Notes under the pieces: generated by a model
Database searches by the model: none
Told to the model about the DNA's origin: nothing
What the model saw: the letters and a program-made list of their open reading frames with translations, nothing else
Assembly: GCA_017499595.2 (NCBI GenBank)
Contig: CM039005.1
Coordinates: 2,666,001 to 2,730,000 of the forward strand
Direction of reading: 5' to 3'
Source of the DNA: Psilocybe cubensis
Lineage: Eukaryota
Length of the DNA stretch: 64,000 bases
Part shown: positions 16,487 through 63,980 of the stretch, piece by piece
Layout of the letters: each line of letters opens with the position of its first letter
How positions within the stretch are numbered: the stretch's first letter is position 1
Program-made: the position numbers and the translations under genes

Positions 16487-16911
16487 CGTTGATGACTGCG
16501 GCGCGCTTTTCCACGCCCGTTTTGGTCATCGTCGTCGACGATGAGCTCGATATCGACGAATTTTGAACGGATTAATGTAGTTATTACATGTATACGTAGA
16601 GAAATATAACGCTTACCGTGATTGGAACTTCGTTTGAGCGATCGTATGTTATATTTAACACACGCGCCGGGCCAAGACATACGGCCCCTATGTCGCCCGG
16701 TTATGTAATGTCCGGTCAACCGGACTTGTCGTAAACATACGAAAATTCTTACTTGATTTTGCAGGGTAAAACAAATAATTGTTTGCATATTGTAAAGCTA
16801 ATAAAAATATTACTTAACATTGTAAACCGGGCCCCGAAATTTGGGTGCATTTGTAAGACCAAAAATTTATTGTATTGGATTACATTGCTTTGTAATCTAC
16901 TGTCTGTTTAG

Positions 16912-17104
16912 TTGATGCATGCGGGAGAGTCACAAGGTCTCGCTTGCAGCCTCGTCCGATGGATGTATTTATCTGTGGGAAAAAAGTAGCCAGCGCGTTG
17001 AAACTCGAATGCTCTTCAATTGCGTTGGAGCTAAAAAGCTTGTATTTGCTGCTGTCCTAGCCGTTGCTTGCGTTAAATGGTCGTCGTACTTTTTTGCTGT
17101 ATGA
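16912..17104 (+). pseudogene. Probable 3' exon of the interrupted WD40 gene
   Basis: After a tttag acceptor it encodes LAASSDGCIYLWEK and a hydrophobic segment. This matches the paralog's IASAS..LHIWQW plus TM segment. A frameshift appears to be needed. Confidence 0.55.
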
Positions 17105-19286: not shown

Positions 19287-20068
19287 TTAAAACCAAAAAT
19301 GAAGGCGCGTAGTTAAATCAGGATCGCCAAAAGTACGGGAGTCCACTAGAATGCCATCAAGCATCTCCGCTGTTTCGATGCTACTATCAGCTATCTCCGG
19401 TATATCTATGTTTCTCAGCTCATGAGCAGCGCCAGACTTAGCTTCCAACCTATTGTAAATAGGCTTGGTGGTGCGAGGTGAGGTTGTTGCGCTATTCACA
19501 ATGAAACGGTGCTCAAAATGACTCTGTAGCCGGATCTCGATCCGGTTCTCATATATTAAGATCTCCAATTTGGTCTATGGTCATGGGAAAGAATTAAAGG
19601 ACCAGGCCCGGTTAATTGACGCTGCCACAGATTATGACAGGAGCAAAGCGTACATACCACGGTATGATTCAATCTATCAAGTGGGGATCGCTATCGTAAT
19701 GACCAACACAATCAATGTTAAAAATACACCCTCATTATTTCGCGAACAAAGCGTACCTCACTCAAATTAACTTCAAGCGAGGTCCAAGACGTAGTAAAGA
19801 TAGTATTTCTATCATGTATTGGTCTCGGTGAGCGATGAATTGTTATTGCTTTTGAAGTTGCTCCACGTTGACCCAGGATAAAGTTTGCTGAGGGTTCGTG
19901 CTGAGCGATATCAATGGATTCGGTGACTGAAGACTCAGAGGCAATAAGCGGATATTCTGTATCATACTGAGGTAGAAGTGGTGTTGGTTGGGCTCGGATA
20001 GAAGGTGTAGCGAGCGGGGGGATATGTCTTCGACCCCGAGGAATGTAGCAAGTAGAAAGGTTGATCAT
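19287..20068 (-). CDS. Hypothetical multi-exon protein, possibly degenerate
   Basis: ORFs 19718-20185 and 19287-19568 are linked by GT..AG intron-like segments. No domain recognised. Confidence 0.3.
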
Positions 20069-43048: not shown

Positions 43049-44747
43049 AAACCACACTCGCTACTTGCCCAGTCACGTGGTGTTCAGCGAGAACTACTCC
43101 AGGTCCATCTCATCAGCCTCCCATTCCTGGTAAGCAGATAAATTTCGTTCTGATGTCTTCGTCAATTCACATTTAGCAACAAACAAGTTTTCTCTGATGC
43201 ATAGACATGAAACCGCACTCGTATTTTGTATGATTCGCCATCCTTACAGTCGTCAGCACGAACCTTGCGGGAGATGTTGTCAAGGTCTATATTCATTTTA
43301 CCCCACTCGAGCTGCACCCTAAATCTAATTATAAACACAGATTCTGTAGACCGCTACCATGTTAATGTGTCCTGCTTCATGTGCCTCATCCTAGGCTTTC
43401 CAACAACACCGAGTGGTTAAATGTCCTTCGGTTGCACCTGCTTTGAACATCTTGGTGGTATCCTACCGCCTGCAGGAGGCTTCTGCAATTTCTTTTAAAG
43501 ATCCCACTAGGATCTCATAAGGGGTCTCTCCATTCTCCCCACATCCTAACCACTGCGACGTCTACTGGCATTTATTCAACAGCATCACACCCTTTCACAC
43601 ACCCGGACCGCTGTGACGTCTGATGTACACCGCACTCGTCTTCATATTTTGACCGCTGCATTTGTCCGTGGACATTGCACTCGTCCACATCCATCTTCCG
43701 TCCGTGGCACATGGCACCACGGTAGTTATTACTCTTTCAATACCTCTCCACACACCCATACCACCCCTACTACGCTGGCCTTGCAATGTCCTGACGCGAC
43801 ATTCGTTACATCTGTCCAGCAAAACACACTATGCGAACAATAGCAGTGGTACATCTGTCTCACTTTACCAATCATTGATGCTCATGGTGATCACAGGTAG
43901 AAAAGGGATCAGGAGACATGGTGGAAGAGGACACTTTACTCTTTAAACGCCCAAATTCGTAATATTACAACCGAAAACCCTTTAATGTATGCTTAGGGTC
44001 GAGATAGATACTATTGTTCATCATAAGAAATTATCAATAAATCTCTGCTAATAATATCATCGAAAACAAGAACAGTAAGATGTAGAAGTCACAGAGATCT
44101 ACGTCAAAAACGGCAGGATCGAATGCTGGTCTCTTCGAATACGCTCTGGGTGTCAACATGCCCTCCTCCATAGCAGCATAATCCTTTATGGGGTCTAGCA
44201 TGATATCGTGACTGGACTTGCAGTTCATACAGCTGCTCTTCGTATAGGCGAACCTGAGGGACACTCTAATAAATACTCGGTATCATTTCGACAAGGATGA
44301 GTGCCTTACGCACCAAGGAATCATATATAACCGGGTATCCTAGTAAAACAATCAGACGATCCGAGGCCTGTTCAATGTGGACACGTATGTTATTATAATC
44401 CAAATATCCTTCCAGACATAAGTTAATAATGCTAAAAATCGTTCATTAGTTGGGTTTACAGACAAATAAATGCAGAGCGTACACGCACGTCTAACTCGAT
44501 CTACGATGTGATTAAATTCAATATTTTCAAGCCTGGGACTGGGCAGGACTCCTCATGACTTCAATATTGCATCCGAGGCCTGTCCTTGCTGGATCCGGGT
44601 AGTTGATTTTGCATCATTTCTTTCTTTTAGGCGTCCCTCTACCTTTTCCTCGTGTTGCTGGCATGTTGACAGCATCATCATAGATATACTTCTATCTTAC
44701 CATATATCTAAACTTTATTATTTGACACATCTTGCCACAAGTGCGAC

Positions 44748-45846
44748 ATGTCGGATTCCATCCGCGACGCTCAATCGAGTCGTGCAGCCGCGGAAATGTT
44801 CCTGCTTACTCTGGCGGACGAAGGTCCCAACGTCAACAGGCAGCTATCGCCGTTGTGGGCTTCACGAGACGAATTCCAGAGGACACTAGAGCAACCGGGA
44901 CTTCAGGGGACTTTAGAAGATATCGTAATGCATGACCATGAAAACTTAGTGCCAACGTTCGACGGTGCCCCGACGTTAAAGTCATCCCATCACTCTTCGG
45001 GAAACCCTACACCTGCCCTGTCTGCAAATAATAAGAAGAGCAAATACGAACGCAGCCAATATACATCCAGAGCAATTACGATCTTGGATGATATCTCAAA
45101 ATCTGTGGAGGCTTGTTCGGCCAATCTTCAAAGGGATGCACAACTCCCAGATGCCCTGGAACACGCAAGAAAACGAATTGCGCAGCTGCATCGCAAGCTG
45201 GACAAAGTCAAGCGCAAGACCCCCTCCATTTTGGAAGAGAAGGAACGCATTCGGCGAAGACTATTAGATTTGAACGCACAACTGAACGAGATGCAAAAGG
45301 AGCGGACAACTTCTGGCAACAATTCCCCTCTTCTCTATGATTCCAGTAAGCTCTTCATCATGCATCATATGCAAATATAAGTTCATATGTGTATAACAGG
45401 CCATCATTTTGAGCCCCTCGTTGACAACCAAGATCCTCCGGCTCAGATCGCAACATTTATTGGGGTTGTATCGGCAGTGATGATAGGTGCAGGTCGGCGC
45501 ATGGCCGAGTTTATCCTCAAGACAATGCCCATTATGTTGCGCAGCGCTTTCGAAATCTCTTCGATTGAAATCGATATGCAACAGCAACATATCTTGGATC
45601 AAATACCGTCAACACTGAATACAGCCCTCTCCAAATTCAACTTATCTTCGAAAACCGTTACCTACGCGGTCTGTCCTGCCTGCCATTGCACATACCCACC
45701 CGCCTTTCCACTGGATCCAAATAAACCGGAGTATCCGTCCGTCTGCAATAATTTTCCCAATCTAGGTTCAGATCTGTGTGGGATCCCTCTTTTGGAAAGC
45801 GACGCCGATGACGGGGGGAATCCTGTTCCCATCAAAACTTTTGTCT
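44748..45846 (+). pseudogene. CACTA/EnSpm Tnp2-like transposase, 5' part (interrupted)
   Basis: Two exons with YAVCPACHCTY..C..C. It ends PVPIKTFV at the TSD. Confidence 0.85.
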
Positions 45847-46150
45847 CACATAAGACAGTTTATTTATAACGTACATTACCTAAGATTTAATAATAAGGAT
45901 ATTACGTGAGACACGGTGGATTTACTCCCGCTACCTAATTAGGAGATTAGCGTGATGTACGTGTGATTTATCCTGGCAAATCATAGCGTACATGACGTGC
46001 CATTTAGCACTAAATGGAGCCGCCGGGTGGCATGCGGGATCCGCGTGTCGGGCTGCACGGGAAAAACACGGGCCGCAAATGAACCGGACGGGTCCATCTA
46101 CATCCCGTGTATTGCAAGCAGACGGATCCGTTTTGACCCGTGTTGTGCTG
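45847..46150 (+). repeat. Left TIR (304 bp, begins CACATAAGAC)
   Basis: Reverse complement of 61212-61515; no mismatch noticed. Confidence 0.95.
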
Positions 46151-46243
46151 TCAGACGGACCCATTTGACCCGTGTCTTCCCAGAGAGGGAGGGTTATTTA
46201 TGGGGTATTGCAAGTCAATGAGCACAAGGGCTCCAAAAATAAT

Positions 46244-47673
46244 TTATTCATCTCTACCGGTATACAAATGCTTTTCCAAACTCGATTCAATCCCTGCCAG
46301 CCCAGCGTCAATTTCCTCCAGCGCATTATAAGTCAGAATCTCTGACTGCAGCTGATGCAGCCGGAGGTTCTTGAACGTTGTAACCTTTCCGTCATAACTA
46401 CTGTTGCCGACGGAACTGTCAATTATTTGGTCGTATGTTGCCCGTAGCTGCTGCTCGGTATAATTCTAAAATAGTTGTCAGTATCTAGTGCTTGGTAATA
46501 TCTGAGTACATACATATAGAAAAGGAGGGTTAAAATACGCCGTCTGATCTGTTACATTCTTGAACTCAATGTCAGACTGGGTGGGAGGCGAACCGGGGTA
46601 GCCGCCCATGGGATCAAACCTGCCGTAGGTTCGAAAATAAGGGTTTTGAAGGAGCAGGTGGCATGCTTCAGGGGGTGGAGAATAGCAACCTTGCTTCCTC
46701 TCAGAGGAAATAGCTGGACGAGAGTCCATAATGATTTTGTCGACGACAGACGTGTATGAAACATGTGCTGCCATCAACGGCGGAGCCGCATCATCCCGGA
46801 TGACAGGCATAGGTGGAGGATCCAGGGTATCTGGAATAACAGGCATAGGGGGAGGATCCAGGGTAGGTGGAATGACAGGCATAGGGGGAGGAGCTAGGTT
46901 ATTTGGAATGATTGGCATTGGCGGCGGAGCCAAGTCGTTCCGGATGACAGGCATTGGCGGCGGAGCCGTGTCGTTCCGGATGACTGGCATTGGCGGCGGA
47001 GCCAGGTTAGCTGGAATGACTGGCATAGGGGGTGGAGCCAGGCTAGCTGGAATTACTGGCATTGGCGGCGGAGCCAGGTCTTTCCGGATGACTGGCATAG
47101 GGGGCGGAGCCAGGCTAGCTGGAATTACTGGCATTGGCGGCGGAGCCAGGTCTTTCCGGATGACTGGCATAGGGGGCGGAGCCAGGTTAGCTGGAATAAC
47201 AGGCATAGGGGGTGGAGCCAGGTTAGCTGGAATTACTGGCATAGGGGGTGGAGCCAGGTTAGCTGGAATTACTGGCATTGGCGGCGGAGCCAGGTCTTTC
47301 CGGATGACTGGCATAGGGGGCGGAGCCAGGTTAGATGAAATGACTGGCATAGGGGGAGGAGCCAGGTTAGCTGGAATAACAGGCATAGGGGGTGGAGCCA
47401 GGTTATCTGGAATGACTGGCATTGGCGGCGGAGCCAGGTCATCCGTCCTTGCTGTGCGTTTGCTTTCCTTAGAGTTGCTAATATTTGAAGACATTGCTGA
47501 TGCTCAGAAATCAATTTAAATTTACTTGAATTAATGCAATTAGTCTTACATTTTATAGGTTTTACGGGAGGAGGTTCCTTCAGTTTTTCGAGAAGCCTGG
47601 TAAGATTGTTGAGACTGGTGTAGTCAATGGGGGAATTTTTGCTAGAGGTGGGAATAAAGTTGTAGGAGGACAT
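46244..47673 (-). CDS. Hypothetical protein with 18 tandem 12-aa repeats (LAPPPMPVIxxx)
   Basis: A 36-bp repeat at ~46790-47437 inside a 338-aa ORF. The last exon reads NYTEQQLRATY..TGRDE*. The start codon is uncertain. Confidence 0.6.
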
Positions 47674-47977
47674 ACAGTCCAGAAAGTGCAACTGGGTGGG
47701 CTTGTTTATATATCTCACGGAATACAATACTATCCGAGGATTCTCCATGACACGGAAATAGATTCACCCGTGTATCGAACTTAGCAACTTTTGCACAAAC
47801 TGGATCTGGTGAAGAAATCACATGACTCAGATTGTACATGTTTGTGTATGGTTTTGTTTTGCGGGACCGCTTTTTTTTAGACTTTTTTTAGACTAACTCC
47901 AACCACGATCACCACCCCACGTTCTACCGTGCCTCACCCATTAACGCGTCTTCCCCCCAAAAAAAAACGCTTTCCCA

Positions 47978-50555
47978 ATGGCCTCTTCATCTTCCACCAC
48001 CGCCACCTTCGCCCAACGCCTTGCTGACTGGGAAAAAACCTTTACAGAGTGCTACCGCAATGGCGAAAGCGCGTTCAACGCTCAGTTGGAGCAGCTCTAC
48101 AGGGACTTGGTGAGTAATCGATATCCCTTGAGCATAAGACTTACTGAACAAAAAAAATTCATCCAAATAGGTTCCACTGTGTCAAGAACACGTCAGGGAC
48201 GCGGCCAACTTCCGCCTCGTGGATTATGTCGCAAGCCCTGTCGTGTATTCATACAAGACCAGCCAGGGCAAGGACGGCAAGCAGGTAGCAAGGTTCGAGG
48301 TCGACTGGGCAAATTTGCATCATCAAGTCGCAAATTTCAAGGCATACCAGCAAGGCCAGGAGGCACAGAGGAAGAGGAGGGAGGAGGAAGAGCAAGAGAA
48401 GAGGAGGGAGAAGGAGGAGCAAGAGGAGGAGGAGAGGCAGAGGGTGGAGGAGAGGAGGAAGAGGGAGGTGAGGAGGAAGAGGGAGGAGAAGAAGAAGAGG
48501 GAGGAGGAAGAGGAGAGGCAGAGGGAGGAGGAGGAGGAGAGGCAGAGGGAGGAGGAGAGGAGGAAGAGGGAGGAAGAGAAGCAGAAGGTGGAGGAGAGGA
48601 GGAAGGAGGAGAGGAGGAAGAGGGAGCAGGAGAGGAAGACCAGGGAGCAGGAGAGGCAGAAGGCGGAGGAGAGGAGGAAGAGGGAGCAGGAGCAGGAGCA
48701 GGAGACAGACGAGGAGAGGAACAAGGAGGAGACGGAGAAGAGACGGGCCGAGAAGGGCAAGGGCAAGGCAGTCGAACCCCCGGTGGAAGACGGACCCGTG
48801 ACAGACGCCCACAAAGACAAGGGCAAACGGAAAGCGGCGGACCCCGTGGAGTCCATTCAGTTGGCTCCAGCGGACTACAGGGGCCCACGGACAAGGAAGG
48901 GGGAAATCATTCCCCACATCACCGCCTCCAACATGCCTGGTCACCCAGCGTACAGGGAGAAGCTGGAAAGATTGGCGAAGTCCAAGCAGGGGAAGTTCAA
49001 GAGCAAAGCAATCATAGGAAGCCACACGGACGAAGACGCGGACGCGGACGTCGACGAGGACGACGAAGGCGATGACCAAGAGGCCCCGCCTACCACCCCC
49101 ACCCGGAAGATGCTCACCCGGTCTGCAAAGAAGGACGCCAACCAGGACAATATCCCCCCCATCAGGAAGGCGCGGTCGAGATCCGAGAAAGCGCGCCAGG
49201 TGCCGGAGGGGATGGTGGATATGGTGGAAAGGTGCACGGGATGCACCAAATTCAAGGTGCCGTGCCATGTCAAGGGAGAGACAGGCACTGAGCCTCTCGT
49301 CCCCATAAAGCACCAATCTTGCGAGTCTTGCAAGTCTCGCAAGATTCACTGCAGTTTCTACCCGGGACGTTTCTACCCGGGACGCAACACTGTCGCCGGG
49401 CAATTCAACCTCTCGACGCCGCTGGGAAGTTACGGGGAGGTGTTGAAGTTGGAGGAGGGAGAGGATGTTCCGGCGAAGGGGAAGGCCGGGGAAGGGTCGT
49501 TCCCCGAGGATGTGGGAGAGCTGCTTGTGCAGCTGTTTGAGCGACAAGGCCGACTGATGGAACGGATGGATGGCCTTTCCGCGTCCATGACGGCGATAAA
49601 CGCACGGATTGCAACGTTCGCCGAGACAAACTTGGCGGTGGAGAAGAGGATGAAGACCGTCGAGGACAGCTTCCAAGAGCTGAAGGCCGAGTGGACCACG
49701 GCAAAAGAACAAGTGGCAGGAAACACTTCGCTTTCCGTCACGATGTTCAACAACATCAAGCAGGCGATCCAGGACGTTCAGTACGTGGTCGGGGTTTTGC
49801 TGGAGCAGGATGAACAAAGGAATCCCGCCCCCAAACAGGCAGCAGAACCCTCCAAGACGGAGGTCGAACAAGAATCGGGTCCGTCGCGGACCCGTGAACC
49901 CACCTCTGCGCCACAATCCCCCAGCCCACCACCACCGCCAGCACCCCTCCCTTCCCCACCTCCACCTCCAGCAGCACCCATTCTCCCTTCCCCTCCTCCA
50001 CCACCGCCAGCACCTGTCCTCCCTTCCCCACCCCCACCTCCACCCGCACCCGTCTTCCCTGCCGTGTCTGCGCCACCAACAGAGCTATTCTTGCCCGGTT
50101 CGACTCCAGAAGCGCCTTCGCCCCCCCCAGCTGGCCGACCCTCGCTCCCACCGGTACCACCCGTCCTTTCCCTATCTCCACCACCCCCTCTCCCAGCTCC
50201 ACGTCCTCGAAGTTCGACGTCAAAGGCCGCACCGTTGTCAAAGGGTGCACCATCGTCAAAGGCCGCGCCATCGTCATCGTCAAAGGCCGGCCCATCCTCA
50301 AAGGCTAAGCCATTGTCAAAGGCTAAGCCATCCTCCAAGGCTGGGCCATCCGGGAATGGACACTCATCGGAGTTGTCTGATCCCTCGGACAGCGACGAGG
50401 TTGAAATTGTGGAGGAGGATGTTGAGATCGTGGCGTCCACGCTGCCCGCGTCGAACATAGCCACAAAGACAAGGGCTGGACGGAAGCGAAAGGCGGAAAC
50501 GACTCTGGCTGAAGCATCGCGCTCGCCCAAAAAACCCAAGGCCCAAAAAAAGTAG
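47978..50555 (+). CDS. Zn(II)2Cys6-like cluster protein with an E/R/K-rich helix, a coiled coil and a Pro-rich tail
   Basis: Two exons (intron 48110-48170). C-x2-C-x6-C-x18-C-x2-C-x6-C (CTGCTKFKVPC..CESCKSRKIHC) and a basic NLS-like end. Confidence 0.75.
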
Positions 50556-50820
50556 TGTATTTCAAATCTTTGTAACTTTTTTTGGTCTCCTTTTTTGCCT
50601 TGTCTCATAGATTGCATTGTACAATTTTTAATATTTGGACTGTATATAGTTTTTACTCTCATGTGCTCATCTGTTTTATATCTCTCCCAAAAAGTAGCAC
50701 TTGATGATTTTTAATGAACCCGCTTTCTGTTTTGATTTTGTGTGAAAACATGTTTGAGAAACATCAAGATAAGAATAAAAAGCATCACATTCAATAGGTA
50801 TCATGAATCTACTTCAACAG

Positions 50821-53131
50821 CTAGGCTTTCAAAGTTTTTTTTCTTTGTCTTTTACCTGCTACAGCAAGCAGACTTGCTTCCTGAAGTGCTAAGGCATCCG
50901 AAGTCACATTCCTGCGGGCCCGTGTTTCATCCGTATCTGGACTTGTTACTGTCTCCACAAAGGCATCACAAGTCACGTCCCTGCCGGCCCGTGTATTATC
51001 CGTGTCTTGGGTTGTTCCTGTTTGGACTCCATCTTCTTCCACTGTGTCAAGTGGATCTGAGTAGGGCTTTGTTCTTTTCCTAGGTTGAATCCTTCTAGTT
51101 GGTTTTGGCTTAACTGGGGGGGGTACAGAACTCTCTTCATCGGGTCCGTCCATTTCCGCCGTTCCGACATATGGCTTTGTTCTTTTTCTTGGCATAATCT
51201 TTCTAGCTGGCTTGGGAGGCGCCTCCTCAACCTCTGGAGTTGGGCTGGATGATGGATTGACAATTGTTGGGCTGGATCTACTTGGTAGAGAGGGTGGCTC
51301 GCTAGATCTTGAAGGTGCGTCGGTAGGAGTCTCATCCGTCTCTGGCGTGACTTCAAATCTGGCAGTAGTGCGTGGCATCGCGGATGCCGGACTGCCCCGT
51401 CCATTATCAAACTCTGACAGATTGGATGATTCAGAGTCGCTTGAAGATTGGGTTTGAAGTCGTATAGCTTTTTGCCTCAGGCGACGTTTGGTTATTGCTG
51501 CAGGAGGTGGAGGTATCGGGTGGGCTTCTAGGCCGTCAAACAAGTTGGACGGATAGAGAGGTTCCATAATATCATAGCCATTTCCAAAAACCTTTGAAAA
51601 TTTAAAGGGGATGTCTCCTTGGGCTTGACGGTCCCTCCATAGCTTGAGAATTGCAGAGGTTGACTCCAGGCGGAGCCGGCTCGGATCCGTCACGGGGATT
51701 GAACTTGGCCAATACTCTGGATCAATCATTTCTGCAGAACGCCTTTCAAGAGCATCCCAAGGAACACTTGAACCAGGCCTGTCCTTGGCTAAAGCTGTAT
51801 ACATAGTTAGCAAGTTTGTTGAGGACATAGACAAATTACACACCATAAACCTTGTTCATGTAAATTCTAATAATTGACTTTTGTGCATAAGCGACTTCTC
51901 TCCCAGTTGAGCCATAGATAGGACTAGGTACTATTGGAAATCCATTGCTGCTAAACTTGAGGGATTTTTCATGAAACGATGCATCTGGCAGTGCTGGATT
52001 GGCCACACCCTTCTCTATTTCTGAAATGTGGACGAGGTATTGAACAAACGCTCTGCGAAAAGCGGCCAACTCGGATGGAAAGAGTTGCCCAAAGGAAGGA
52101 ATTCTGACATCGTCGAGTGCTAGATCGCTTGTCTGGGTCCTTCAATGCCCATCAGTCAACATTAATACGGGCCAAATTATTCCGCCGCGAATGCTTACGG
52201 CGGAAACTTTATCCGCCGTAGGGTGTTTACGGCGGATAAAGTTTCCGCCGTAAGCATTCACGGCGGAACTTGTTCATGCCGTGTTTAACACTTACATTGA
52301 GTATTTGATTTTACCCTCAATATCATAATGCCCCTCAAAGGTAATGGACCTCATACCCATTCTCTGCCACTTAAGTTTCTCCATTTGTCGAAGTATTTTT
52401 CTGCCTTGCCTGGCAGCAGTCCTGCAGATGTCAGATTGACGGCGGAAACAAGTTCCACCGACTCACTTTGCCTTCATTGATTTTGAAACACCTTTCTTAT
52501 TCCATTCCTCGAGGATCTCCATGAACCTGTCCCGCTCCTCCTGAGTCAATCTGGCCTCAACCTGCTTACGTCCTTGTTGATAAAACTTCATCCAATCTTT
52601 ACTTCCACGAGCAGCATTCCCTGATAGAAGCGCAACCTCGGAGTCAATCTCTGCCGACTTCTCCTCACGGAATACCGTCTGAAAGGTTATACGGGAGTTC
52701 AATCCTTCCAATTTTACACCAATTCGATTTGACGCATGGTTTCTAAACCAATTAAATATTCGCTATTGTGATGGTTTATGTGTGTAACAAAATTTTCAAA
52801 GAAACAACGAGCTCACATGCTTCTTCACCTTCCATTCTTTGTGTAGTTGCTTATCTTCCTTCCTAGCACGTCTAGAGTATCTGTGATCCCATGTAGCTTG
52901 CAGCTCAGGTATGACAGTGTTCTGTATGTAGTCTGCTTTGGATGACTTTGATGTATCTTTGTAGGGCTGTACATGCTTTTTCAACACGCGCATTTCCTTT
53001 GTTGTCCAAATATTTGATTCTTCCGGCGGAAAGTCACCCTCCGCCGTCTGTCCGTTTCTGGGTCCGTTGTGGGTTGTGGCATTTGCGGTAGAAGGAAGCG
53101 GATCCGCGTCGGGGGATGCATTGGTGGGCAT
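50821..53131 (-). CDS. Multi-exon KDZ-associated protein with homeo-like (IFNWFRNH) and HMG-like helical segments
   Basis: Exons at 52796-53131, ~52463-52760, ~52297-52420, 51836-52140 and 50821-51780. Contains WMKFYQQGRKQVEARLTQEERDRFMEILEEWN. Confidence 0.6.
52180..52268. repeat. Intronic palindrome with 41-bp arms (1 mismatch) and a 7-nt loop
   Basis: ttccgccgcgaatgcttacggcggaaactttatccgccgta-gggtgtt-tacggcggataaagtttccgccgtaagcattcacggcggaa. Confidence 0.95.
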
Positions 53132-54010
53132 AATTGCAGTGATGTAACAAGTAGCTTATCGATGAGTATCTGTGTGATCTGGTCAAATCTCACGTTATAC
53201 GGAGATAAAATAAGCTTCCGATCATACTAAATAAATGATGTGATGTCATATTTTTCCCAATCAGGTAATCCCGCTTCATCGTCGGCCACGATGATCAAAG
53301 CATGCTGGTCGCTGTCACATACATTGACCTCATGATTTTGCAATAGTTCCCTCTGCATTCAATCAATAAACATGGAATTTTGTAAACATTTAGCGCTTTA
53401 TATAAAGATAATTTTACAAGGTTTTAAATTCTTGTCAGATGGCTGTAAAGATACAGAAACACAAAATGCAAATTCACGTCTTCTCACCCAAAACTTGTGA
53501 AACCCAAAACGGCAGTCATCTCAGAGACCATGAGAGGTATTCAAATGCATAATTTTTTTCAAAAAATATAATGATCCCAGTGAGCTCATTTTGACACATT
53601 TTCTAGTATATTGAGAATATCTCCTTAAATACGAGGATTCACATTCTACAAAAAATGTCATTCGGTAGCTATTAAAAATATCTTTCATATGATATACGCC
53701 GGAGGAATGAGGGGCCAGCCAGTGAAAAGATATTTCAAAAACACTCCAAAGTGTGGTTCTGAAAGGGTCGTTCTGCATCATATTGTACATTTATGATGGG
53801 ATCACGTCCATTTTGTGCATCTCTGGATTAAGTTTTGTTCATAACATTTCACTCACTCATCCAAATATGCTGCAAGATAAGTCATATGAAAGCTATTTTT
53901 CTCCTCTTTAAAACGGCATAATTGAGGGAAATTTATCTACAGAAATAAACATGTTATACTACATTTAGATCTGCGCTCACAGGCTGTCAGACTCTTTGTT
54001 TCCAACATCC

Positions 54011-57000
54011 ATGGGCTTCAAGAAAGTACCTGATAGGGGATCGGATGAGGAGTTTCCCAATGTTCGGGAGGCCTCCTGGTCTAGTGGGGCCAAGAAACGA
54101 AAGAGAGGGCGGCCGAGGATCCACAAACTTCCTGCAGAATCATCATCAACAAACCTCCCTCAAACAACGACTTACTCTTTCCAAAACCATGAACACAACA
54201 TTCTGGAAGAAGAAATACCTCATTATCCGGGAGATCTAACTGATCAGCAGGTACTTGATAACCTGAGACAGCTAGATGACGACAGAACGGGAGGAAAGGT
54301 ATGTTTTAACATGTTTTCAGTAGAATGATCAGGATGACTTTACCTATCCAGTCTCAAAATGATTACCTGAGGGAATGGCTCCCGAAACGAGAGGTGTATC
54401 TTGGAACAATGATTGGAGGAGAAGCCCCGGATCCGGATCTGAATGGACAGTGTCAGCAATGTCAAGGAATGTCTGGAGTGTGGAGATGTTGCCAATGCTT
54501 TGGCTCTAGAATTTTGTGTTCTGAATGCCTGCGAAGAAACCATCAATTTACACCTTTCCACCGCGTTGAGAAGTGGACGGGTCTATATTTCCGTCCGGGA
54601 GCTCTGTGGGAAGTGGGTGTCAAGTTGTATTTGGGTCATAATGGGAAACGTTGTCCTTATCCCACGGATCCGAGCCACCTAGGATGGGACGGCGGAAACA
54701 ATTCATCCGGGAGTCATGGGCACGGCGGAAACAATTCGCCCGTCTTTGAAGATGAACACGGATTGGACCTGGATCCGCTTCCTGCGAGCAATGACCAAGA
54801 ATCCTTTACGGCTCAGCTTCTGGCGGACCCGGAGGTACCCCATTTGGTTGAGCTGGACGATGGAGACGATGAAGACGATGATCTATTCGAGGAAGTCGAT
54901 ACAACCTATCTGGACCAACCTCGTCCAAAGGCAGCAGACAACAATGGAATTCCTTTCAAGGCAATTGTGCACACCTCCGGAGTCCATTATCTGCCCGTGC
55001 GAACATGCACATGCCGGTCCGTCCGCCTTCCGTCTATCGATTTACAGTATCTGGAGATGGGATTATTTGCAGCCAGCTTTGAAAACGTTCAAACTGTGTT
55101 CACAGTTGAGGTCCTTGAGGACTTTCGGATGGACAACCTCGAGTGCAAAACGTCGGCTTATCAGTATTACCAAAAGTTGCGAAGACTGACTTCGCCAGCG
55201 TTTCCAAAAAAGGTGCTGAACCGCTATCGTGAATTGAGAAGGCTTAGTAGAGAATACAGGGACCTTGTCCTGAGACGACAATACGGAGAAGGGCATACAA
55301 GAGAAGCGGTGGTCCCTTACTATCGTCATTGCCATGATTCATCACCAGAGAGGATGGGTATTAATGTATCTGATCCAATTGACGGCGGATCTGATAGTCC
55401 GTCTCAAGAAGTCGGAATGTCAACGGACCCGTCTCTGGGACACGGCGGATTAGATGGTCCGCCTGTACCACAAATGACGCGGACCGAGGATCATCCCGAA
55501 GTTGAAGATAGGAGAGGGAAGTTGGCCTTATTCTGCCCCGCCTGTCCACAGCCTGGAATAAACCTACCTGATACCTGGATTGATGATGCTGATAGGCAAG
55601 TTTTAGTTATTCTTCAAGGGTGACTGCAATTAACAGCAAGTAGCAATCTGTACATACGTAGTTATGTTGCAGATGGTAATTTCAAAGCAGATCACCTCAA
55701 TCAGAAAAACGAGGGAGACGATGTTTGGTTGAGCGTTGGAGAAGGATACATGACTGCTCCGGGCCCTTACAAGGAGCACATTAAGGAAGCAATTTCTCTT
55801 GCTCCACGTTATAAACGGGTGCGTTATCTACCATGATTTATCTTTCACGGCGGATGCTTACGCTCCGTGTCAAAATCTTCTACGGCGGATGCTTACTTTC
55901 CGTGTCAAAAAATATCAGGAACAAACATGTCATAACTACCACGCCCAGAAAGCTGAAAACAGAGTCAGCCCGGGTAAGAGAGTACGTGGAATTGGGGCAC
56001 ACGCTTGCGCTAGGCACGGATGCTTCTGTCCATCCAGCGTTGTCGATTTTGACAAAGGTGAAAAGCAGATGCACATGGATTGGTCTTTGACTCAGGCCAG
56101 GGAAACTACCAACACACAGGGAATCACAAAACATTTGGAAATCTACGATATAAACTGTCAATATTGCGTTAACTTGGCAAGGCGTCTCTCAGAGTCCACA
56201 AAAATGCATTGGCCACCTTCTGTTAAAATGATTTTTGCAATTGGTTTATTTCACGTCCACGGGCACAAGACGGAATGTCTTTACAACTACGCATCCACCT
56301 ATGTCCCGGGTGTGGGAATCATTGACGGAGAAATCCTGGAGCCGTTGTGGTCCGTGTTAAATGACACATCCCGGAGTACACGTTCCGCTACCACTGCCCA
56401 TCGAGCAGAGGTTTTGGACGACCACATGGGGGATTCCAACTGGAAGAAGACCATTAATATGGCTGCAACAATTGCTGCAAAGTTCAAACGGGCACGGGAA
56501 CAGTCCGGAATCACAGACCGATTTTATAGGGGTATCACGGATCAACAAGATTCCGGGCTCATCAACACTTGGGAAGATGAAATTTCAAAAGCAGAAGCGG
56601 ACCGAGAACAAGGTGTGGCCGACGCTGTTGGCAAGGTAATGGCAAGCAAAGTGAAAACGGCTGCTGGACGCCAAGAAATTGAATTGCATCTTTCAAATAT
56701 GGAACTTACATCTAATGGTGCTACTGGAAAGGCAGCATGGATATCATCCGGCTTAAAACTGGAGCAAGCGCAGTACGATTATTTCAATTGCATCCTACAG
56801 AATTTAACATGTTTTTAGATTGGAGCTCAGGGACCATGTCAGAAAGCTCGGAAAGCATCCTTCCACCGCGCAGAAACTTGACTTGGTCAATAAACGTCGC
56901 TCCATGCGGACCCGCGTTGAAGCCTTCTGTCGATCCGCTATGACCTTCATGGGCGAAGATGTCTTGGAGGATATTCAAGGGGACATCGCTCCCATACTTG

Positions 57001-57894
57001 ACTATGAAGTCAGTGACAACGACGATCCTGATCTTGGAAATGTCAACATTACCCGCGCGGATCCGGAACGACAGCCGCTTCCGTTTCCCTCCGCCGTCAA
57101 ACAAGATTTCTTTGACGGCCTTGACGCGGGAACAAACCTCATTTTAAAAGGGCTTCGCAAACTTGAACTTCAAATAAGACATGGCCACGCAGAGGACTGT
57201 CTGGAAGCGGTCCGGTCAGCCTTGATCCAGCTTTCTTGGCAGTATAAATATCAGGTTCGGACCGCCGACTCCGTCTATATGGGGACTCGTGCTTGGGATG
57301 GCGTCAAGCTTTTGAATGCTTCCTGGAAATTGCACCGGCGACTCTACAACACAAACCGTCAGAAGATGATCTATTTATCTGCTGGCGTGCGAGACGAGGA
57401 TAATATTCGGAAACAATATCCCATTCTGCAAGTCCATGATTGCAAGCATAGTAATGCCGTGTCGGATCCGAACATTCGCGGAGGAAGCTCGGACCGTCTA
57501 AGTTGGATTTGGAGATCCCGTCAGGGCCTGGACAATGATAATCAATTATACGTTAATGAGTGTGAGTACTGCTATTTGTATTTCTAATTTTTTTCTCAAG
57601 GGCTTCTTAGTCTTTAGGCTAAACTGGCTCCGCGCGCGAGCTCAGAGGAATAGATGGCAAGAGGAGCTGGCCTTGACAAAAAAGGAAATGGAATGGACTG
57701 TCAGATTTTATGTGTATATGGCAAAGACATGGCGTGCACGGCATGATTTTGTTCCTGACAGGTTAGTTGGTCACAGGGCAAATGCTCAAAAGCAGATTGC
57801 CATGTGGAATGATCTGGGGCGGGCCGCGGATAAGGTCTTCCGTCAAATTAACCCGGAGTATCCGTCCGTGTGGAGATTTATAATTACAGATTAA
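54011..57894 (+). CDS. KDZ transposase with a CxC2 cysteine cluster (multi-exon)
   Basis: CxC2-like HQFTPFHRVEKW..VHTSGVH..CTC..GLFAAS..TVFT. KDZ core: CPACPQPG, ADGNFK, CARHG, GEKQ, YDINCQY, FHVHGH, DGEILEPLWS. Confidence 0.93.
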
Positions 57895-57938
57895 CCAGTT
57901 CTTTGAACATTCTTGTTGTATCTCATCTTGTTGAATTC

Positions 57939-59563
57939 ATGCACTTACCGCGGCTTTTTAAACCTCCTGTCGAGGACGAACATCATCTCCTTACCTATGA
58001 TGAGCGACGTGCTCTGGCCAAAGTTCATGTCCATATTTGTGGTGCACGGATCCGTGCCGGATACCGTTTGTTCATTGCAAACGGAGACTCTGTTTCCTCC
58101 GTGCGTCGCCAAAAATGGATGTATTTGCTTGACCTAGAGGTGGTAAGACAGTAATTTTGAACTATTATATCTTGCATTGAGAACTGCTCGATAGGCTATA
58201 CTGCTGAGAGTACTCGGATACTGCTATGTCAATGGATTCCAAGTCGATATTCCATTTTTTATATCAGAAATTCTCAATCAGAGCGTACATGCCGTTTTGA
58301 ACCGAACTCCCCACCATCGAGCTGTTCTATTTGAATCTCTAAATCAAAGCTGGTCAGCATGGGAAGATGATGAAATTTTAAATCAGACCAAGAGCTGGGG
58401 ATATTGGTGGAGGGACGGATTTGCTGAAGGCGATGAGTGGCAAGTTGCCTTTGTTACCGTTGAATCGCAAGCAAGAGAATTTTGGAACAAGGTATGTTTT
58501 TTTATTGCTGTGGATTATATCTGATTTGCGTCCTTCCCACCAGGTGGTTCTGCCTGAATACCAACAAGAGGTACTCCGGCTAAACAATCAGAGGAAAGAA
58601 GCTAAGGAGGGCGCAAGTTCATCCACCTCTGGGCCTCCAAGAAATCAAGAAAACAATCCCAAGGGCAAGGGAAAGGCGGCTGAACGGACATCCGTCCCCA
58701 CCTCGGGGAAGCACGGATCCGCGTTGACGGGAAAGCACGGCTCCGCGTTTTCACCGCCCACGGGGAAACCCAATCCGCCGACCCGTGTTGCAAACACGCG
58801 GGATGAAACATCCCCAATTGCAATTTCTGACCACAGACCGCCCTACTGTCCCCGCTGCGGTCAGCCTATCCTAACGGGCGTAATGAGGGAGTTGGCTCAC
58901 CTGCGCCGGAATGTGGCGGACAAAATGAAGAATGCCCATAAAGCAGTGACTACTTCTTCGGCCGCCTTGGGCAGATATTCTGTATTGGAGAAGATGTGGA
59001 TTGACTCTAAGGAGCTCCCGTTCTCTAACGGCAAGGGGCTTTCAGCCAAATACAAATTTCAGCATCCCGTTCACCCTTCTCCTGACAGTTGGGGCGCTAT
59101 AACGGCTCAAGCCCGGTCCTTCGAGGTCTCAAAGCTCAAAGTCGCTTCATTTTACATCAACGACATTTTTTATTCTTTTATTGCCGTCAAGGAACTACCT
59201 TTTCATCCACTCTGGTATCATTCGCCACCCTCCAACACTGCAAATATTCATCTCCCAACAGATACTCTGCCTACGCCCGGTTCCGTCAGCCCTCCGTCAA
59301 ATGCACACACCAGCAATGCCTTCCTTTTTAACGCAAGGTCAAGACCTGTTTTCCCGGGAGAAGAGGATGATATTGATAGTACGTCTGATACCACTGAATC
59401 CTCTACACCAGCTACGTTTTTAGAGCATCTCGCACAGGACTTTGAAGAGGAGGCGGATGAGGAGTCTTCCGCCGGTGATACGACGGAGGAGTCAGATGCT
59501 TCCGGTAACTCAGAAGAGCTTAGCGAGGACGTGTCGGAAACACCCTGGGATGAGGAATCTTAG
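57939..59563 (+). CDS. Hypothetical multi-exon protein (CPRC motif, acidic tail)
   Basis: Successive ORFs at 57870, 58297 and 58421 are linked by GT..AG introns. Confidence 0.6.
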
Positions 59564-59711
59564 TTGCCCACCTCTCGCACAGGACATCGAAGAGGAGGCG
59601 GATGATGCCTTTTCCGCCGGTAATACGACGGCGGAGTCCAATGATTCCGGTAACCTTGGAAGAGCTCAGCGCGGACGCGTCGGAAACACCCTGGGACAGA
59701 GAATTCTGGTT
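59428..59711. repeat. Imperfect tandem duplication, 2 x ~145 bp
   Basis: tctcgcacaggac..gaagaggaggcggatga..ggaaacaccctggga starts at 59428 and again at 59573. Confidence 0.85.
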
Positions 59712-59790
59712 GTGCTGTAGCTTTCGTACTGTTTTGGTTTGGAAATATAAAAAAATCTTCCCCAAACCCAACTTCCAAGTCAAAAACTGA

Positions 59791-61070
59791 TCATATTTCA
59801 AAATCAAAAGCGTTGGTGGCCGGTAAATTTGCAAAAAGATCGTACGTAGTAGACCATCCCGCCTCTTGGACTCCCAGCTCTTCAAATACAGTCCTACGCA
59901 TGTAATAGACTATGACTGCCCTGTCTCCATCGCACACCGCGCCGTGTTGAAGCAACCTGCCGGTAATTGCAACAAGGGTCATGGGATCATACTTGTACCG
60001 AAGTCCAAGGCCCGGAAGCTCAAGCCGTCCGTGTTCACCCTTCCCAAGCGGCATCAAAAAATCGTACCATGAGTAGCACGACCCATTATCCCGATGGTAT
60101 GGTGTATCTCGGTTGCTGATCACGGTCATGACTCCAAAGGGCGAACTCCAAATTGTGAGAATTTGCTTCAATATTTCAGCCTTATGGACAAGCTCCGGTT
60201 CCGCAGCAAGCCGTTGAAGAAATTTCATTCCCGCCCGGTACTGCTCGGGATGTATAATGCTCAAGATGGCTCCCAGCAAAGCCGAAGATGTCGTCGTGTC
60301 TCGTATAAACTCCTGTCCAATTGGATTACACAAGTCCAAGGAGACCTCAAGCGGGTTGGACGTCTGAGGAAAATATGAGGCAGTATAATAATTAGCATAC
60401 AAGTTTCTCACCTCATGGCCTTGCTGAAACCATGCCGGGGAGAAGTTAATATTTCCAGGTTGAACCCAACCTGGCTCATGTCGAAAGTAACTGTCATTGA
60501 CCCTCCAGCTTGTGGCCAAAGGTACCGCCTTGTGAATCATTGTTTCAATATCCCGTAATGAATTCCACACACTCTCCTGTTACTCTTTAGAAAGCATAAT
60601 ATATGAATTAATTGGTCTGTTTCTAAAACTCACCACCCTTGTCTCTGACAAAATACCTGGCAGGTACCACACCAATATGTTGCCTGCACTATCGACCACA
60701 GTTCCGGGCAGGGTTTGGTACTGTAACGCGGAATGCACCGGAGAAAACTTGTTTTTCAGGCGAGCCTCAACGGTAAAATTCTGACCCGTGCAACGTGCAC
60801 TGAGATGAGTCAAATATTCTTCTGCATCCCACGTCGTATATTCTGCCATTCACACATTATTTAATCTCAATTTTCAAAGCTTATTGATTGCATACCTTGA
60901 TTTTCAAATGCCTGCAAAATCACCTCCACAGCTAGATTGCACTCAAACATGGTCTCAGCACTGAAGTTTTCCCGGATTTGATTAGGCAGTTCTGCATGCC
61001 AAAGACGACTAGCTATTTGTGCCTTCATGTAGTTTGAGAGGGATTGGGTTAGCTCAAAGGCATAATCCAT
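59791..61070 (-). CDS. TET/JBP-family 2OG-Fe(II) dioxygenase (4 exons)
   Basis: VVDSAGNILVWYLPG, SPAWFQQGH, NRDTPYHRD (HxD), LLQHGA (distal His) and GDRAVIVYYMR (2OG-binding Arg). This is the fungal TET/JBP pattern. Confidence 0.9.
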
Positions 61071-61211
61071 GCTATCAGGGTATGTGGAAAGGAATGTGCT
61101 GCCAGTATAATCTATACACCTTATTACATATATTAACGGTCATCCGATGTATGATTCTTCAAGGCGGATATTTGTCGGAATACAGAAGCGGGTGGATGAA
61201 TGGACCCGTCT

Positions 61212-61515
61212 CAGCACAACACGGGTCAAAACGGATCCGTCTGCTTGCAATACACGGGATGTAGATGGACCCGTCCGGTTCATTTGCGGCCCGTGTTTTT
61301 CCCGTGCAGCCCGACACGCGGATCCCGCATGCCACCCGGCGGCTCCATTTAGTGCTAAATGGCACGTCATGTACGCTATGATTTGCCAGGATAAATCACA
61401 CGTACATCACGCTAATCTCCTAATTAGGTAGCGGGAGTAAATCCACCGTGTCTCACGTAATATCCTTATTATTAAATCTTAGGTAATGTACGTTATAAAT
61501 AAACTGTCTTATGTG
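61212..61515 (-). repeat. Right TIR (304 bp)
   Basis: Ends ...gtcttatgtg and is followed by the TSD tttgtct. Confidence 0.95.
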
Positions 61516-63980
61516 TTTGTCTACCATTCTTTCCACGATTACCTTGCTGAACTCCTCTCGAACAAAGAGCTGGAGACAATGATGGATGAGGCCTGTGACA
61601 AATTTGTCAAATCTATCAACGAAATGGACACGGTAGAGAAAATGGCTGCCCACCCTGAATTTACTTCAGATGTTTTCGAGGCAGAGTTTGTGCGGACATT
61701 TGAAGGGCCAGAGGTGGGTAAGCTTTTTCTGGATAGACCTGAAGGTCAAGGACGCTACCTTTTTGCTTTCAATTTCGATTTTTTCACTGCTGAGCGAAAA
61801 ACGATCCGAGGAGCATCCGCATCTTGCGGAATTCTGTCCGCCGCCTGCTTGAACCTTCCTCTTCATCTGCGGTACAAACCAGAAAATATGTATATCGCAG
61901 GTGTAATACCCGGACCATTGGAGCCTCATGAAACAGAACTCAATCACTACCTACGCATCCTTGTTGACGACCTTTTAGTCTCTTGGAAGGATGGTGTCCG
62001 CTTCTCACGCACTGCTAACCATCCTAATGGAAAGACAACTCAATGTGGTCTTGCAATCAGTGTAAACGATCTTGTGGCGGCCAGACAAATTAGCCAGTGT
62101 GCGAGTCACATAAGCAATCACTTTTGTTCACGTTGCAAGGTTTTCGGACGCGCCAGTCTGGGCAGGGTCGACATCCAGGAAAAAGATTGGGCACCCAAAG
62201 AAAATAACACTCTACGAGAGCATGCCGAGAAATGGAAAGCCGCGACCAGCAAAAAGGATAGGGATGATCTTTTCACAAAAAATGGGATGCGTTGGTCTGA
62301 GCTATGGCGCCTGCCGTACTGGGATCAGGCGAATATGCTGGTCGTTGATTCGATGCATTGTCTTTTGGAAGGACTGGCTCAGTTTCATTTTAGGAAAGTA
62401 CTGAAGCTCCAAGATGTCGATGCTCTCTCCAGAGAGGTGGGCGAAGACGCGTTTGAGCTGGAACCATCGATGCCCAATGAAGCATATATCGAAGCCCAGG
62501 AATTAACTGATAATGACCTACAACACATCTCTCAGATCTACAAACTTCTTGTTTCTCCCATCCTTGTGGTCGAGCTAGCGTCTTTGCCCACCATATCATT
62601 GGATCTTAATACACGTCTTCAAAGAAAGAACCTCAAGTCGTTACGCTTTGTTGCTGAAGAACTGTACAACGCAGAAGGACTAACTTTAACGGTTGCAGCC
62701 ACTAATAGAAAGGCCGAGTACTGTGATGCTCTGGTCCAATGGGTATGATCCAGCATTCTTTTTATGTCTCTTCACTGGCGCTCATTTGAAGCTTCAGCGC
62801 ATGGCAAAACCACTTGTCTCAGAGAATGTAAAAGTAAAATTTGGGACTGTGAATGTCATGAAGCATATTCGAGACGTTATTCGAGACACGGAGGTCCCAG
62901 CGTGGCTTCCTTCTGTCCCTCACAACTTTGGTCAAGCTGCAGCGGGATCGTTAAAAGCAGATGAGTGGCGTACCATGAGCACAATCTACCTTCCACTTGC
63001 CCTCATTGCTATGTGGGGCGAAGGATCGCAACAGACAAACACATCAACAGCAGCAGTAACGCGTCAAGTCCTTGATCATACTATGCACCTAGTCTCGGCA
63101 ATTAATATAGCATGCATGAGAACAATGACGAAGAAACGTATGGACGCCTACCTCTTTTTTATAACTTCGTGGCTTGAAAGCCTTATTATTCTCCATCCGG
63201 AGGTCAGACCTAGACCAAATTGTCATATGGCGATTCACATATATGAATTCCTGGTCCTATTTGGTCCTGTGCGATCGTGGTGGTGTTTTCCATTTGAAAC
63301 ATTGATTGGTCAATTGCAAAGGCTTCCGCATAATCACAAATTTGGTATGTACTTTTTTGCTATTTAATTTCATGATATTAACATTCATCGCTTGGTAGGT
63401 CAGCTTGAGGCTACAATGCTGTCCTCTCATACAAAATCAACGAGGTTGAGACGTTGGCTTAACCGGGCTGATTGTCCTCCTGCTCTCAAGGAATGCCAGA
63501 AAGCATTCAATGAATGTTTTTCAGATGCTACGTCGCTGCGTTCCATTGAAAAGCAAGTTCCCACATCTGCATTTATCCCCGTCCCAAGCCAATTAAAACA
63601 TCTGATTTCTGATCATGAAGTTGCATTTCGCGCTCGCCATAACTTTGATGATACGATATACACGCGAGCTGAGACCCACATTGGAAATAGTCTGATCTTG
63701 TACCACCATAATGGCAACTTAACCTCCTCTCCGATCCCGGCGTCGATTCAGTATATTGTGGTGAACAAGAAGAACATGGTTACTTACATCGTCCGACGAC
63801 AATTATCTGCACCAACGACAACCGTTGATCCTTACAGGCATTATCCGTATTTCCCTGCCAAAGTATATTCAAATGAACTGTCGGCTGAATTTACTCTCGT
63901 CCAACCAGAATGGGTAATGTCGCATTATGCTCGGATAAGATTGGACGACGAAAGAGCAGTGGTTCTCACTCTTGCTCGTG
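61516..63980 (+). pseudogene. CACTA/EnSpm Tnp2-like transposase, 3' part (may continue beyond the window)
   Basis: FVYHSFHDYLAELL, FNFDFF, CLNLP..RYKPEN..GVIPGP, NDLVAAR, RWSELWRLPYWD..VDSMH, LKADEWR, HMAIH, FGPVRSWWCFPFE. Confidence 0.88.

Follow-up and report, generated by a model that had tools for sequence, protein, structure and literature searches.

A 64-kb window of contig CM039005.1 from Psilocybe cubensis, the window being the whole stretch of DNA analysed, was found to contain a 15,669 bp transposon of the KDZ class (Table 1). From left to right, the element carries a terminal inverted repeat (TIR), a tandem motif array, a gene (+) for a protein with a six-cysteine cluster (the six-Cys gene), a companion gene of the transposase, here called gene B (-), the KDZ transposase gene (+), a TET/JBP dioxygenase gene (-) and the second TIR. 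The TIRs are 100% identical over 304 nt, the element starts with CACATAAG and ends with CTTATGTG, and it has the 7-bp target-site duplication (TSD) and CA..TG termini described for TET-positive Kyakuja elements (Kojima 2025).

The six-Cys protein belongs to a cluster of 10 members with at least 90% identity, spread over several large contigs, and the same gene order recurs in the neighbouring locus tags of these copies. As the TIRs are also identical, the element is multi-copy and was recently active, and that in the window is a recently inserted, multi-copy Kyakuja-type KDZ transposon of P. cubensis. No second region similar to it was found within the window. The insertion is nested in a gene of another, CACTA/Plavaka-like transposon, where a tnp2/Transposase_21-like open reading frame (ORF; weak match, E 1.6e-05) is split into 44712-45869 and 61483-62748 (+) and the host reading frame runs on across the insertion.

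Short motifs in the element were counted against the 48,332 bp of the window that lie outside it and against 300 dinucleotide-preserving shuffles (200-300 across tests). The principal motif, M1, has the core ACGGCGGA, a 7-10 nt spacer and TCCG, with the full inverted arm TCCGCCGT present only sometimes. A second motif, M2, is the palindrome CGGATCCG, with 8 copies in positions 50600-61211 and 10 in the whole element versus 0 outside; both motifs are inverted CGGA half-sites, with a spacer of 7-13 or 0. GGCGGA-N6-12-TCCG was found 18 times inside the element and 0 times outside (shuffles: mean 0.10, maximum 3), ACGGCGGA 12 and 0 times, TCCGCCGT 5 times and once (17 versus 1 for the two arms together), CGGA-N7-13-TCCG 31 times and once, and CGG-N9-12-CCG 59 and 19 times (3.77 versus 0.39 per kb). 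For GGCGGA-N6-12-TCCG, ACGGCGGA, TCCGCCGT and CGG-N9-12-CCG, the observed count was reached in 0 of 300 shuffles, and the result was unchanged for positions 50600-61200, which leave out the arrays and TIRs; for M2 the count was reached in 0 of 200-300. In an unbiased count of the 8-mers in 50600-61211, ACGGCGGA ranked first (n=16).

Many sites are local tandem duplicates in units of 33, 35, 36 and 145 bp, and the number of independent motif loci is therefore about 13 instead of about 30, still far over the expectation of 0.1-0.3. These separate loci share an identical 8-mer amid unrelated flanks and spacers. The left arm ACGGCGGA is fixed over 8 nt without covariation and the right arm is often TCCG alone, which favours sequence recognition over a hairpin. 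In other 15-kb slices of the window, used as a control, the enriched 8-mers formed compact tandem arrays, not dispersed sites.

Much of this had been noticed in a first-pass annotation made from the sequence alone. It had described a recurring GGCGGA..(T)CCG motif, and all 13 of the positions it listed have (A)CGGCGGA with TCCG or a near variant 7-10 nt further on. The motif is also present, as it had stated, in the 36-bp repeats and in both introns and exons (gene B introns, a transposase intron, and coding sequence of the transposase and gene B). The TIRs are indeed rich in ACGG/CCGT, at 26.3 per kb compared with 10.7 in the element and 5.1 outside, and the enrichment inside versus outside the element that it had put forward as a check was borne out. 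The three CGG-N11-CCG strings that it quoted were found, but N11 is not the spacing that defines the motif, in which 7-10 nt separate a ACGGCGGA arm from a TCCG arm; CGGATCCG is found in addition.

Table 1. Features of the KDZ element and positions of its motif sites in the window
Feature	Coordinates	Strand	Details
KDZ element	45847-61515		15,669 bp; bounded by TIRs and TSD
Left TSD, TTTGTCT	45840-45846		same 7-mer at 61516-61522
Left TIR	45847-46150		304 nt; starts CA; one CGGATCCG at 46123
36-bp tandem array	46780-47440	+	17.8 units; 540-1200 bp upstream of six-Cys gene
Six-Cys-cluster/coiled-coil gene	47978-50555	+	838 aa; annotated protein P0002
Structure of six-Cys gene	47978-48109, 48171-50555	+	exons 1 and 2; GT..AG intron 48110-48170
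Cys cluster	49233-49352	+	CX2CX6C-X18-CX2CX6C; second triad basic, like first half of Zn2Cys6
Long predicted helix, candidate coiled coil	49512-49721	+	residues 114-183 of 216-aa piece; predicted local distance difference test (pLDDT) ~85
Gene B	50821-53131	-	668 aa, P0138; no known domain; between six-Cys gene and transposase
ACGGCGGA/TCCGCCGT cluster	52180-52268		inside gene B intron ~52142-52294
M1 site	52439-52460	+	occupies most of a ~45-nt gene B intron
M1 site, CCGGCGGA-N9-TCCGCCGT	53024-53047		N-terminal coding part of gene B
KDZ (Kyakuja-type) transposase gene	54011-59563	+	several exons; annotated P0018, 1691 aa
M1 pair, 33 bp apart	54689-54745	+	sites 54689, 54722; hypervariable transposase linker; in frame D-G-G, H-G-G
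M1 pair, 60 bp apart	55382-55465	+	sites 55382, 55442; second hypervariable transposase linker; in frame D-G-G, H-G-G
35-bp tandem repeat	55840-55910	+	2 units, each ACGGCGGA-N9-TCCGTG; sites 55847, 55882; transposase intron
Three M1 sites	59452-59651	+	sites 59452, 59597, 59628; acidic tail and 3' region of transposase gene; two in 145-bp duplication
M2 CGGATCCG, dispersed	51682, 53099, 54428, 54665, 57058, 57463, 58047, 58714		plus one per TIR
TET/JBP dioxygenase gene	59791-60849	-	Tet_JBP domain at 59791-60579
Right TIR	61212-61515		304 nt; ends TG; one CGGATCCG at 61232

When the annotated proteins P0002, P0018 and P0138 were mapped onto the window, the motif was seen to sit where coding constraint is weak, in introns, hypervariable linkers, the upstream array and the TIRs. 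The cluster in the larger gene B intron includes two perfect ACGGCGGA-N7-TCCGCCGT palindromes in a 41-nt inverted repeat. In the paralogue P0019 (53% identity), wholly different sequence stands in place of both motif-bearing linkers of the transposase, and in homologues from Flammula and Galerina these linkers are short or missing. A third unit of the 35-bp repeat is present in sequencing runs X10, X11 and X12, and a diverged genomic copy in run X1 gave no exact alignment across three of the motif-bearing segments. One TCCGCCGT, at 57090, falls in the codons for PFPSA, a conserved peptide, and could be there through a coincidence of the coding sequence.

CGGCGGA is found in 8 units of the 36-bp array, one at 46778 included. 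About half of the units have CGGCGGA-N10-TCCGG and the rest resemble decayed forms (GTGGA, CTGGA), with intact CpG versions alternating with versions in which CG has turned to TG or CA. The array is also open in three frames, and on the minus strand a 341-aa ORF of APPPMPVIPxNL repeats extends over 46478-47503; as the 36-bp unit is a multiple of three, an open frame here is not evidence for a gene.

Two explanations below the level of protein binding were considered and rejected. The exons of the element encode six Gly-Gly dipeptides, 4 of them as NAC-GGC-GGA; a peptide-driven origin was set aside because sites lie in introns and in different frames, and because the peptides are missing from homologues. 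A hairpin as the main explanation was discarded because the arms do not vary in sequence and the right one frequently has just 4 nt. Placement under weak constraint, a fixed 8-nt arm and variable flanks and spacers favour a motif that is recognised as DNA sequence, and speak against an origin in a peptide, a hairpin or one duplication event.

The six-Cys protein opens with a short N-terminal domain and a long stretch rich in Glu, Arg and Lys; the cluster comes next, then a linker of ~55-60 residues and the long helix, and finally Pro-rich and Ser/Lys-rich regions and a basic tail. Just 5 matches were obtained among 1.84 billion protein representatives (3 by a word-based search), namely Psilocybe paralogues, a short protein also from Psilocybe and a Flammula alnicola protein of the same layout. 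The contig that encodes this Flammula protein is equal in length to that of the closest Flammula KDZ transposase. A search of the ESM Atlas with the cluster region returned only unnamed Basidiomycota clusters (0.81-0.83).

The cluster was compared with Zn2Cys6 domains, which canonically have the spacing CX2CX6C-X5-12-CX2CX6-8C. In a Foldseek search, 21 of 22 matches were Zn2Cys6 DNA-binding domains, and a family profile run against the PDB matched AlcR (0.0044), Leu3, Lac9 and Gal4 with E values of 0.004-0.045; the nominal top match, a Cys-rich repeat of a TNF receptor, was compositional. In every alignment, those with the PDB again included, the halves are swapped, with the second triad matching positions 1-14 of the profile as well as the first triad of Lac9, Gal4, AlcR and Leu3, and the first triad aligning to the canonical second triad. 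The Flammula homologue scored 21.7 bits against the Pfam Zn_clus (PF00172) cut-off of 21, covering half of the profile only, and the whole six-Cys ORF of the window gave no Zn_clus match. An AlphaFold2 model of the 56-aa cluster had a mean pLDDT of 63, and ~81 across each triad. A complex prediction with two 216-aa copies of cluster plus helix and four Zn, run without controls, scored 0.12 (mark 0.32) and weighs neither for nor against the proposal. As the Pfam score was below threshold, the halves are swapped and the model is mediocre, the cluster was not filed under PF00172. Judged from these alignments and models, the likeness to Zn2Cys6 is real but partial, and the cluster is best described as a zinc-cluster-like domain of a related, rearranged kind.

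As a comparative set, 80 metagenomic KDZ loci (485 kb in total) were collected. The six-Cys family diverges so fast that tblastn with parts of the protein recovered 0 matches in the 80 loci, and an alignment-based search for related metagenome loci also found nothing. Relatives were detected only with a regular expression for two CX2CX6C triads, which matched 9 ORFs in the 80 loci and one, the window protein, in the 64-kb window. Eight of the 9 are long and on the + strand, and like the window ORF they precede the KDZ domain, at a distance of 4.9-7.9 kb; the other, a 65-aa ORF downstream of the KDZ match in L068, is probably spurious and was dropped from the long-ORF counts. Among the loci whose upstream flank reaches 8 kb or more, 6 of 7 were found to have a six-Cys ORF. 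In these ORFs the six Cys align, the spacers (X6-10) are inside the canonical range, and the layout is that of the window protein, with a charged region, cluster, helix, Pro-rich region and basic tail. Gene B was present in 13-15 of the 80 loci and in L058, and TET in 14, and the complete elements delimited by TIRs repeat the order six-Cys gene (+), gene B (-), transposase (+).

Each complete element was found to have its own dispersed CGG-pair motif, which differs between families. In L058, GCCGCGGC occurs 35 times between the TIRs versus 0 times in 6.3 kb of flank. CCGA[GC]TCGG occurs 12 times in L062 (0.08 expected), CGGA-N3-TCCG 8 times in L012 (0.12 expected), which also has a motif array upstream of its six-Cys ORF, and CCG[AG][CG][TC]CGG 20 times in L052 (0.2 expected). 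In 200 shuffles of each of these four loci, the observed count was reached in 0. On these predicted genes and motif counts, the finding generalises, and a six-Cys gene together with a private CGG-pair motif constitutes a conserved KDZ module.

Two further observations were made in these loci. L049 carries an 80-bp array with ATCGGATCCGGCC (9 copies; 16166-17109) and a 19-bp array with GACGGCGGA (6 copies; 1-110), whose cores are both those of the window element, though the transposases are only 34% identical. In L058, a non-LTR retrotransposon ORF (RVT_1 and an endonuclease domain; 15991-20022) adjoins the complete KDZ element.

It is very likely that the sites are selected protein-binding sites. 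The preferred explanation, held with confidence a little short of even, is that they form a family-specific self-address code, for which the zinc-cluster protein encoded by the element would be the reader, in a way comparable to VANC in the VANDAL transposons of Arabidopsis, with cooperation of TET optional. The inverted CGGA half-sites would be binding sites at the level of DNA, kept by selection where coding constraint is weak, and M1 (ACGGCGGA-N7-10-TCCG(CCGT)) and M2 would jointly mark the whole element as self. Zn2Cys6 domains recognise CGG triplets, and paired triplets of varying orientation and spacing are their grammar. Among the proteins that the element encodes, a DNA-binding-like module is recognisable in the 838-aa half-swapped Zn2Cys6-like protein alone; for this reason, and because the sites have a CGG-pair grammar, it would be the likeliest reader, and whether it is indeed the reader may be called evenly balanced. 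The long flexible or disordered linker between cluster and helix could let a dimer span the 7-10-nt spacers. The bound protein would activate or protect the element, through transcription or anti-silencing; in an element that has a TET enzyme, the two could work together, whether in cis or in trans. Protein binding of the sites, the identity of the binder, its dimerisation and a link to oxidation of 5-methylcytosine are what we infer from these patterns. An extension of this proposal to a co-evolving private code across Agaricomycete KDZ transposons, with a family-specific CpG palindrome all along each element, the codons of disordered linkers included, in which the half-swapped Zn2Cys6-like reader would direct demethylation or anti-silencing of self only via TET, in cis or in trans, is doubtful.

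Several results weigh against a zinc-cluster reader allied to TET. Only a 76-aa piece of the window protein came near the Zn_clus profile, at 19.6 bits against the cut-off of 21, and 0 of 6 locus ORFs reached the cut-off (14 bits or less). The spacers between triads (X18 in the window protein, X17 in the Flammula homologue) are outside the canonical 5-12, and sites 7-10 nt apart are unusual for a rigid Zn2Cys6 dimer. Each TIR has one site, which fits a role for the transposase, and no M1 or M2 site is present in the TET gene or the region upstream of it. Among the relatives, L028 (TCGGCGGA x10) and the L049/L045/L044 family show CGGCGG-type enrichment while their upstream sequence, as far as it extends (6.9-7.9 kb), has no six-Cys ORF, and a relaxed regular expression found no cluster ORF in L028, L049, L005, L019, L055, L016, L006, L052, L080, L037 or L032. 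As the transposase is found in all loci, those motif-enriched ones included, it could be the reader. Conversely, L053 and L075 have a six-Cys ORF with weak or no motif enrichment. The median locus has 0.36 CGGCGG per kb versus a background of 0.23, most loci being short, and the pooled CGGCGG excess is partly due to simple (CGG)n runs. Finally, the complete element in L058 has the motif and a six-Cys gene and no Tet_JBP domain, and the link to TET is therefore optional at best.

The functional proposals of the first-pass annotation fared accordingly. A six-Cys cluster followed by a coiled coil had been described, and a long, confidently predicted helix does follow the cluster at a distance of ~60 residues. 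The likening of that cluster to the Zn2Cys6 type was supported by the structural and profile matches and weakened by the sub-threshold Pfam score, the X18 spacer and the swapped halves. Marking of the element by its own protein in the manner of VANC gained from the pairing of a family-specific CGG-pair motif with a six-Cys ORF in related KDZ elements, and cooperation with TET is not general, with L058 lacking the domain and the window TET gene lacking a site.

The alternative that survives best, though unlikely, is that the KDZ transposase itself binds the motifs, through its CxC2 or another N-terminal zinc-chelating domain, for recognition of the ends or synapsis of a very long element, in which case the six-Cys protein would serve another purpose. 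CxC2 (Pfam 1.5e-21) and KDZ (1.2e-37) matches were found at 54310-56818 (+) and both were recovered on P0018. The transposase is the sole component common to all motif-bearing loci, including L028 and the L049 family that have no six-Cys ORF, and the single CGGATCCG in each TIR of the window element is matched by one GCCGCGGC ~200 nt inside each TIR of L058. The Laccaria Kyakuja families, described as having no TIRs in the available text of Kojima 2025 (PMC12730594), may therefore need other recognition repeats. However, ACGGCGGA is missing from the TIRs, most sites, with a density of 1-2.5 per kb, are several kilobases away from either end, some even within coding sequence, and dispersed internal sites are not obviously required for transposition. 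A family-specific CGG-pair grammar is known from Zn2Cys6 proteins and is not known from any transposase domain.

That the gene B protein is the reader or a co-reader is improbable. Gene B is a conserved companion of the KDZ transposase restricted to Basidiomycota (L016, L012, L055, L058 and others), and besides its presence in L058 and others of the 80 loci it is found in every CGGCGGA-enriched locus without a six-Cys ORF (L028, L049, L045, L044, L005 and L055). However, long loci tend to have both gene and motif simply through greater completeness, and searches of Pfam, the PDB and the Atlas with the protein found no DNA-binding domain or known family, only unnamed Basidiomycota clusters. It includes a stretch, IFNWFRNH, that we take to recall, faintly, a homeodomain recognition helix.

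Reading by host factors is about as improbable as reading by gene B. A host Zn2Cys6 transcription factor, for example, could be the binder if the element had gathered host enhancer sites for its own genes; inverted CGG pairs are typical targets of fungal Zn2Cys6 proteins, and the 36-bp array precedes a gene start in the manner of an upstream activating sequence. However, the 48 kb of genome around the element is essentially free of the extended motifs, many sites fall within introns and coding linkers instead of promoters, and a different motif in each KDZ family fits private recognition better than a shared host factor. Least credible is the absence of any trans-acting reader, with the sites as by-products of tandem duplication, gene conversion, palindrome-prone mutation or DNA/RNA hairpins, for although many sites are tandem duplicates, some have perfect 8-bp arms and their placement is under low constraint, ~13 loci have one 8-mer amid unrelated flanks and spacers, the right arm at many sites has too few nucleotides to form a hairpin, and the same phenomenon recurs with other motifs in independent elements, ending exactly at the TIRs (35 inside versus 0 outside in L058).

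Further features of the genes and repeats of the window were noted. The P0018 annotation joins the transposase to a C-terminal region (58195-59563, +) that is also present in the 1498-aa Flammula homologue P0022, and this extension finishes in an acidic tail with the 145-bp tandem duplication. The Tet_JBP domain (PF12851) was matched at 9.5e-19 (67.7 bits versus a cut-off of 34.9), and the translation of the predicted TET ORF shows H-x-D (HRD). Outside the element, two 35-39-bp tandem arrays ~3.5 kb apart (6816-7016 and 10540-10792) share the core CCAGGCTCATTGCT and may be the subterminal arrays of another mobile element. A 20-26-bp tandem array of ~18 units (15395-15835) is rich in GCGCGCGCCACGCGT, a palindromic core dense in CpG, and an identical 38-nt string, ACGGTGGGCGGATTTGCTGGAGCGCGAGCGCGCGGGCG, at 28276 and 33210 (+) and 36562 (-) points to another repeat family in the window.

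Transposon-borne TET/JBP genes of mushrooms are assumed to counter methylation-based silencing. An element-private CGG motif with a fast-diverging zinc-cluster-like protein would provide a concrete targeting mechanism for a transposon TET and, if correct, would explain how these enzymes, now thought to be target-unspecific, could be aimed. It would also represent an independently evolved fungal counterpart of plant VANC, and a second case of VANC-type self-recognition, and would add a new, half-swapped branch to the largest fold among fungal transcription factors. A candidate role would be available for the extra ORFs without predicted domains of KDZ elements, and motif and protein pairs of differing specificity could serve as orthogonal DNA-targeting parts in fungi.

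Like the Zn2Cys6 factors Gal4, Put3, Leu3, Hap1, AlcR and Pho7, the six-Cys protein has two CX2CX6C triads, one of them basic, each triad is predicted to open a short helix, a helix follows the cluster, and the candidate target is a paired CGG. It differs from them in that the basic triad is second, the spacer is X18, the score lies at the Pfam threshold or under it, a fungal_trans middle homology region is missing and the protein is encoded by a transposon. In maize En/Spm, TnpA is an element-encoded DNA-binding protein other than the transposase, which reads its own repeated motif and promotes reactivation and demethylation. The proposed non-transposase reader would be analogous to it, though the 12-bp repeats of TnpA are subterminal, unlike the element-wide motifs of the window, the protein families are unrelated and the host of En/Spm is a plant.

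The window element resembles the TET-positive Kyakuja elements in the available text of Kojima 2025 (PMC12730594) in having a CxC2 KDZ transposase, an AG-type TET/JBP, a 7-bp TSD and CA..TG termini. The Laccaria families Kyakuja-1/2_LB have no TIRs, a state not matched by the 304-nt perfect TIRs of the window copy, and as L058 and L012 also have long TIRs, the absence of TIRs is probably not defining for the whole Kyakuja lineage. That text speculates on non-specific TET action, and zinc, Zn2Cys6, binding site, subterminal, a dispersed motif and a zinc-cluster-like accessory gene are not mentioned in it, while the available text of a paper on Cryptococcus KDZ elements (PMC11343200) describes extra ORFs without predicted domains. 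In the full-text literature, with Iyer et al. 2014 and supplements outside the coverage, no publication was found that links KDZ or Kyakuja to Zn2Cys6, a binuclear cluster, anti-silencing or VANC.

The closest parallel is with VANC and the VANDAL elements of Arabidopsis, for which motif binding and hypomethylation have been demonstrated (Hosaka et al. 2017; PMC5735166), whereas for the Psilocybe element they are proposed. The VANC protein is unrelated, and the motifs here, unlike those of VANC, are CpG palindromes that also occur in coding linkers of an element that may carry TET. In both cases, as far as the available text of that study describes VANDAL, a short family-specific motif reaches high density in copies of its own element and nowhere else, lies mainly in introns and upstream regions and evolves through the formation of tandem repeats, and relatives have different motifs alongside a fast-diverging element-encoded protein. 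The window motif is likewise dense in its own copies, rare elsewhere, specific to its family and subject to turnover by tandem repeats. Sequence-specific self-recognition by transposons is a known kind of system, to which the element described here would add a form with a rearranged Zn2Cys6-like domain.

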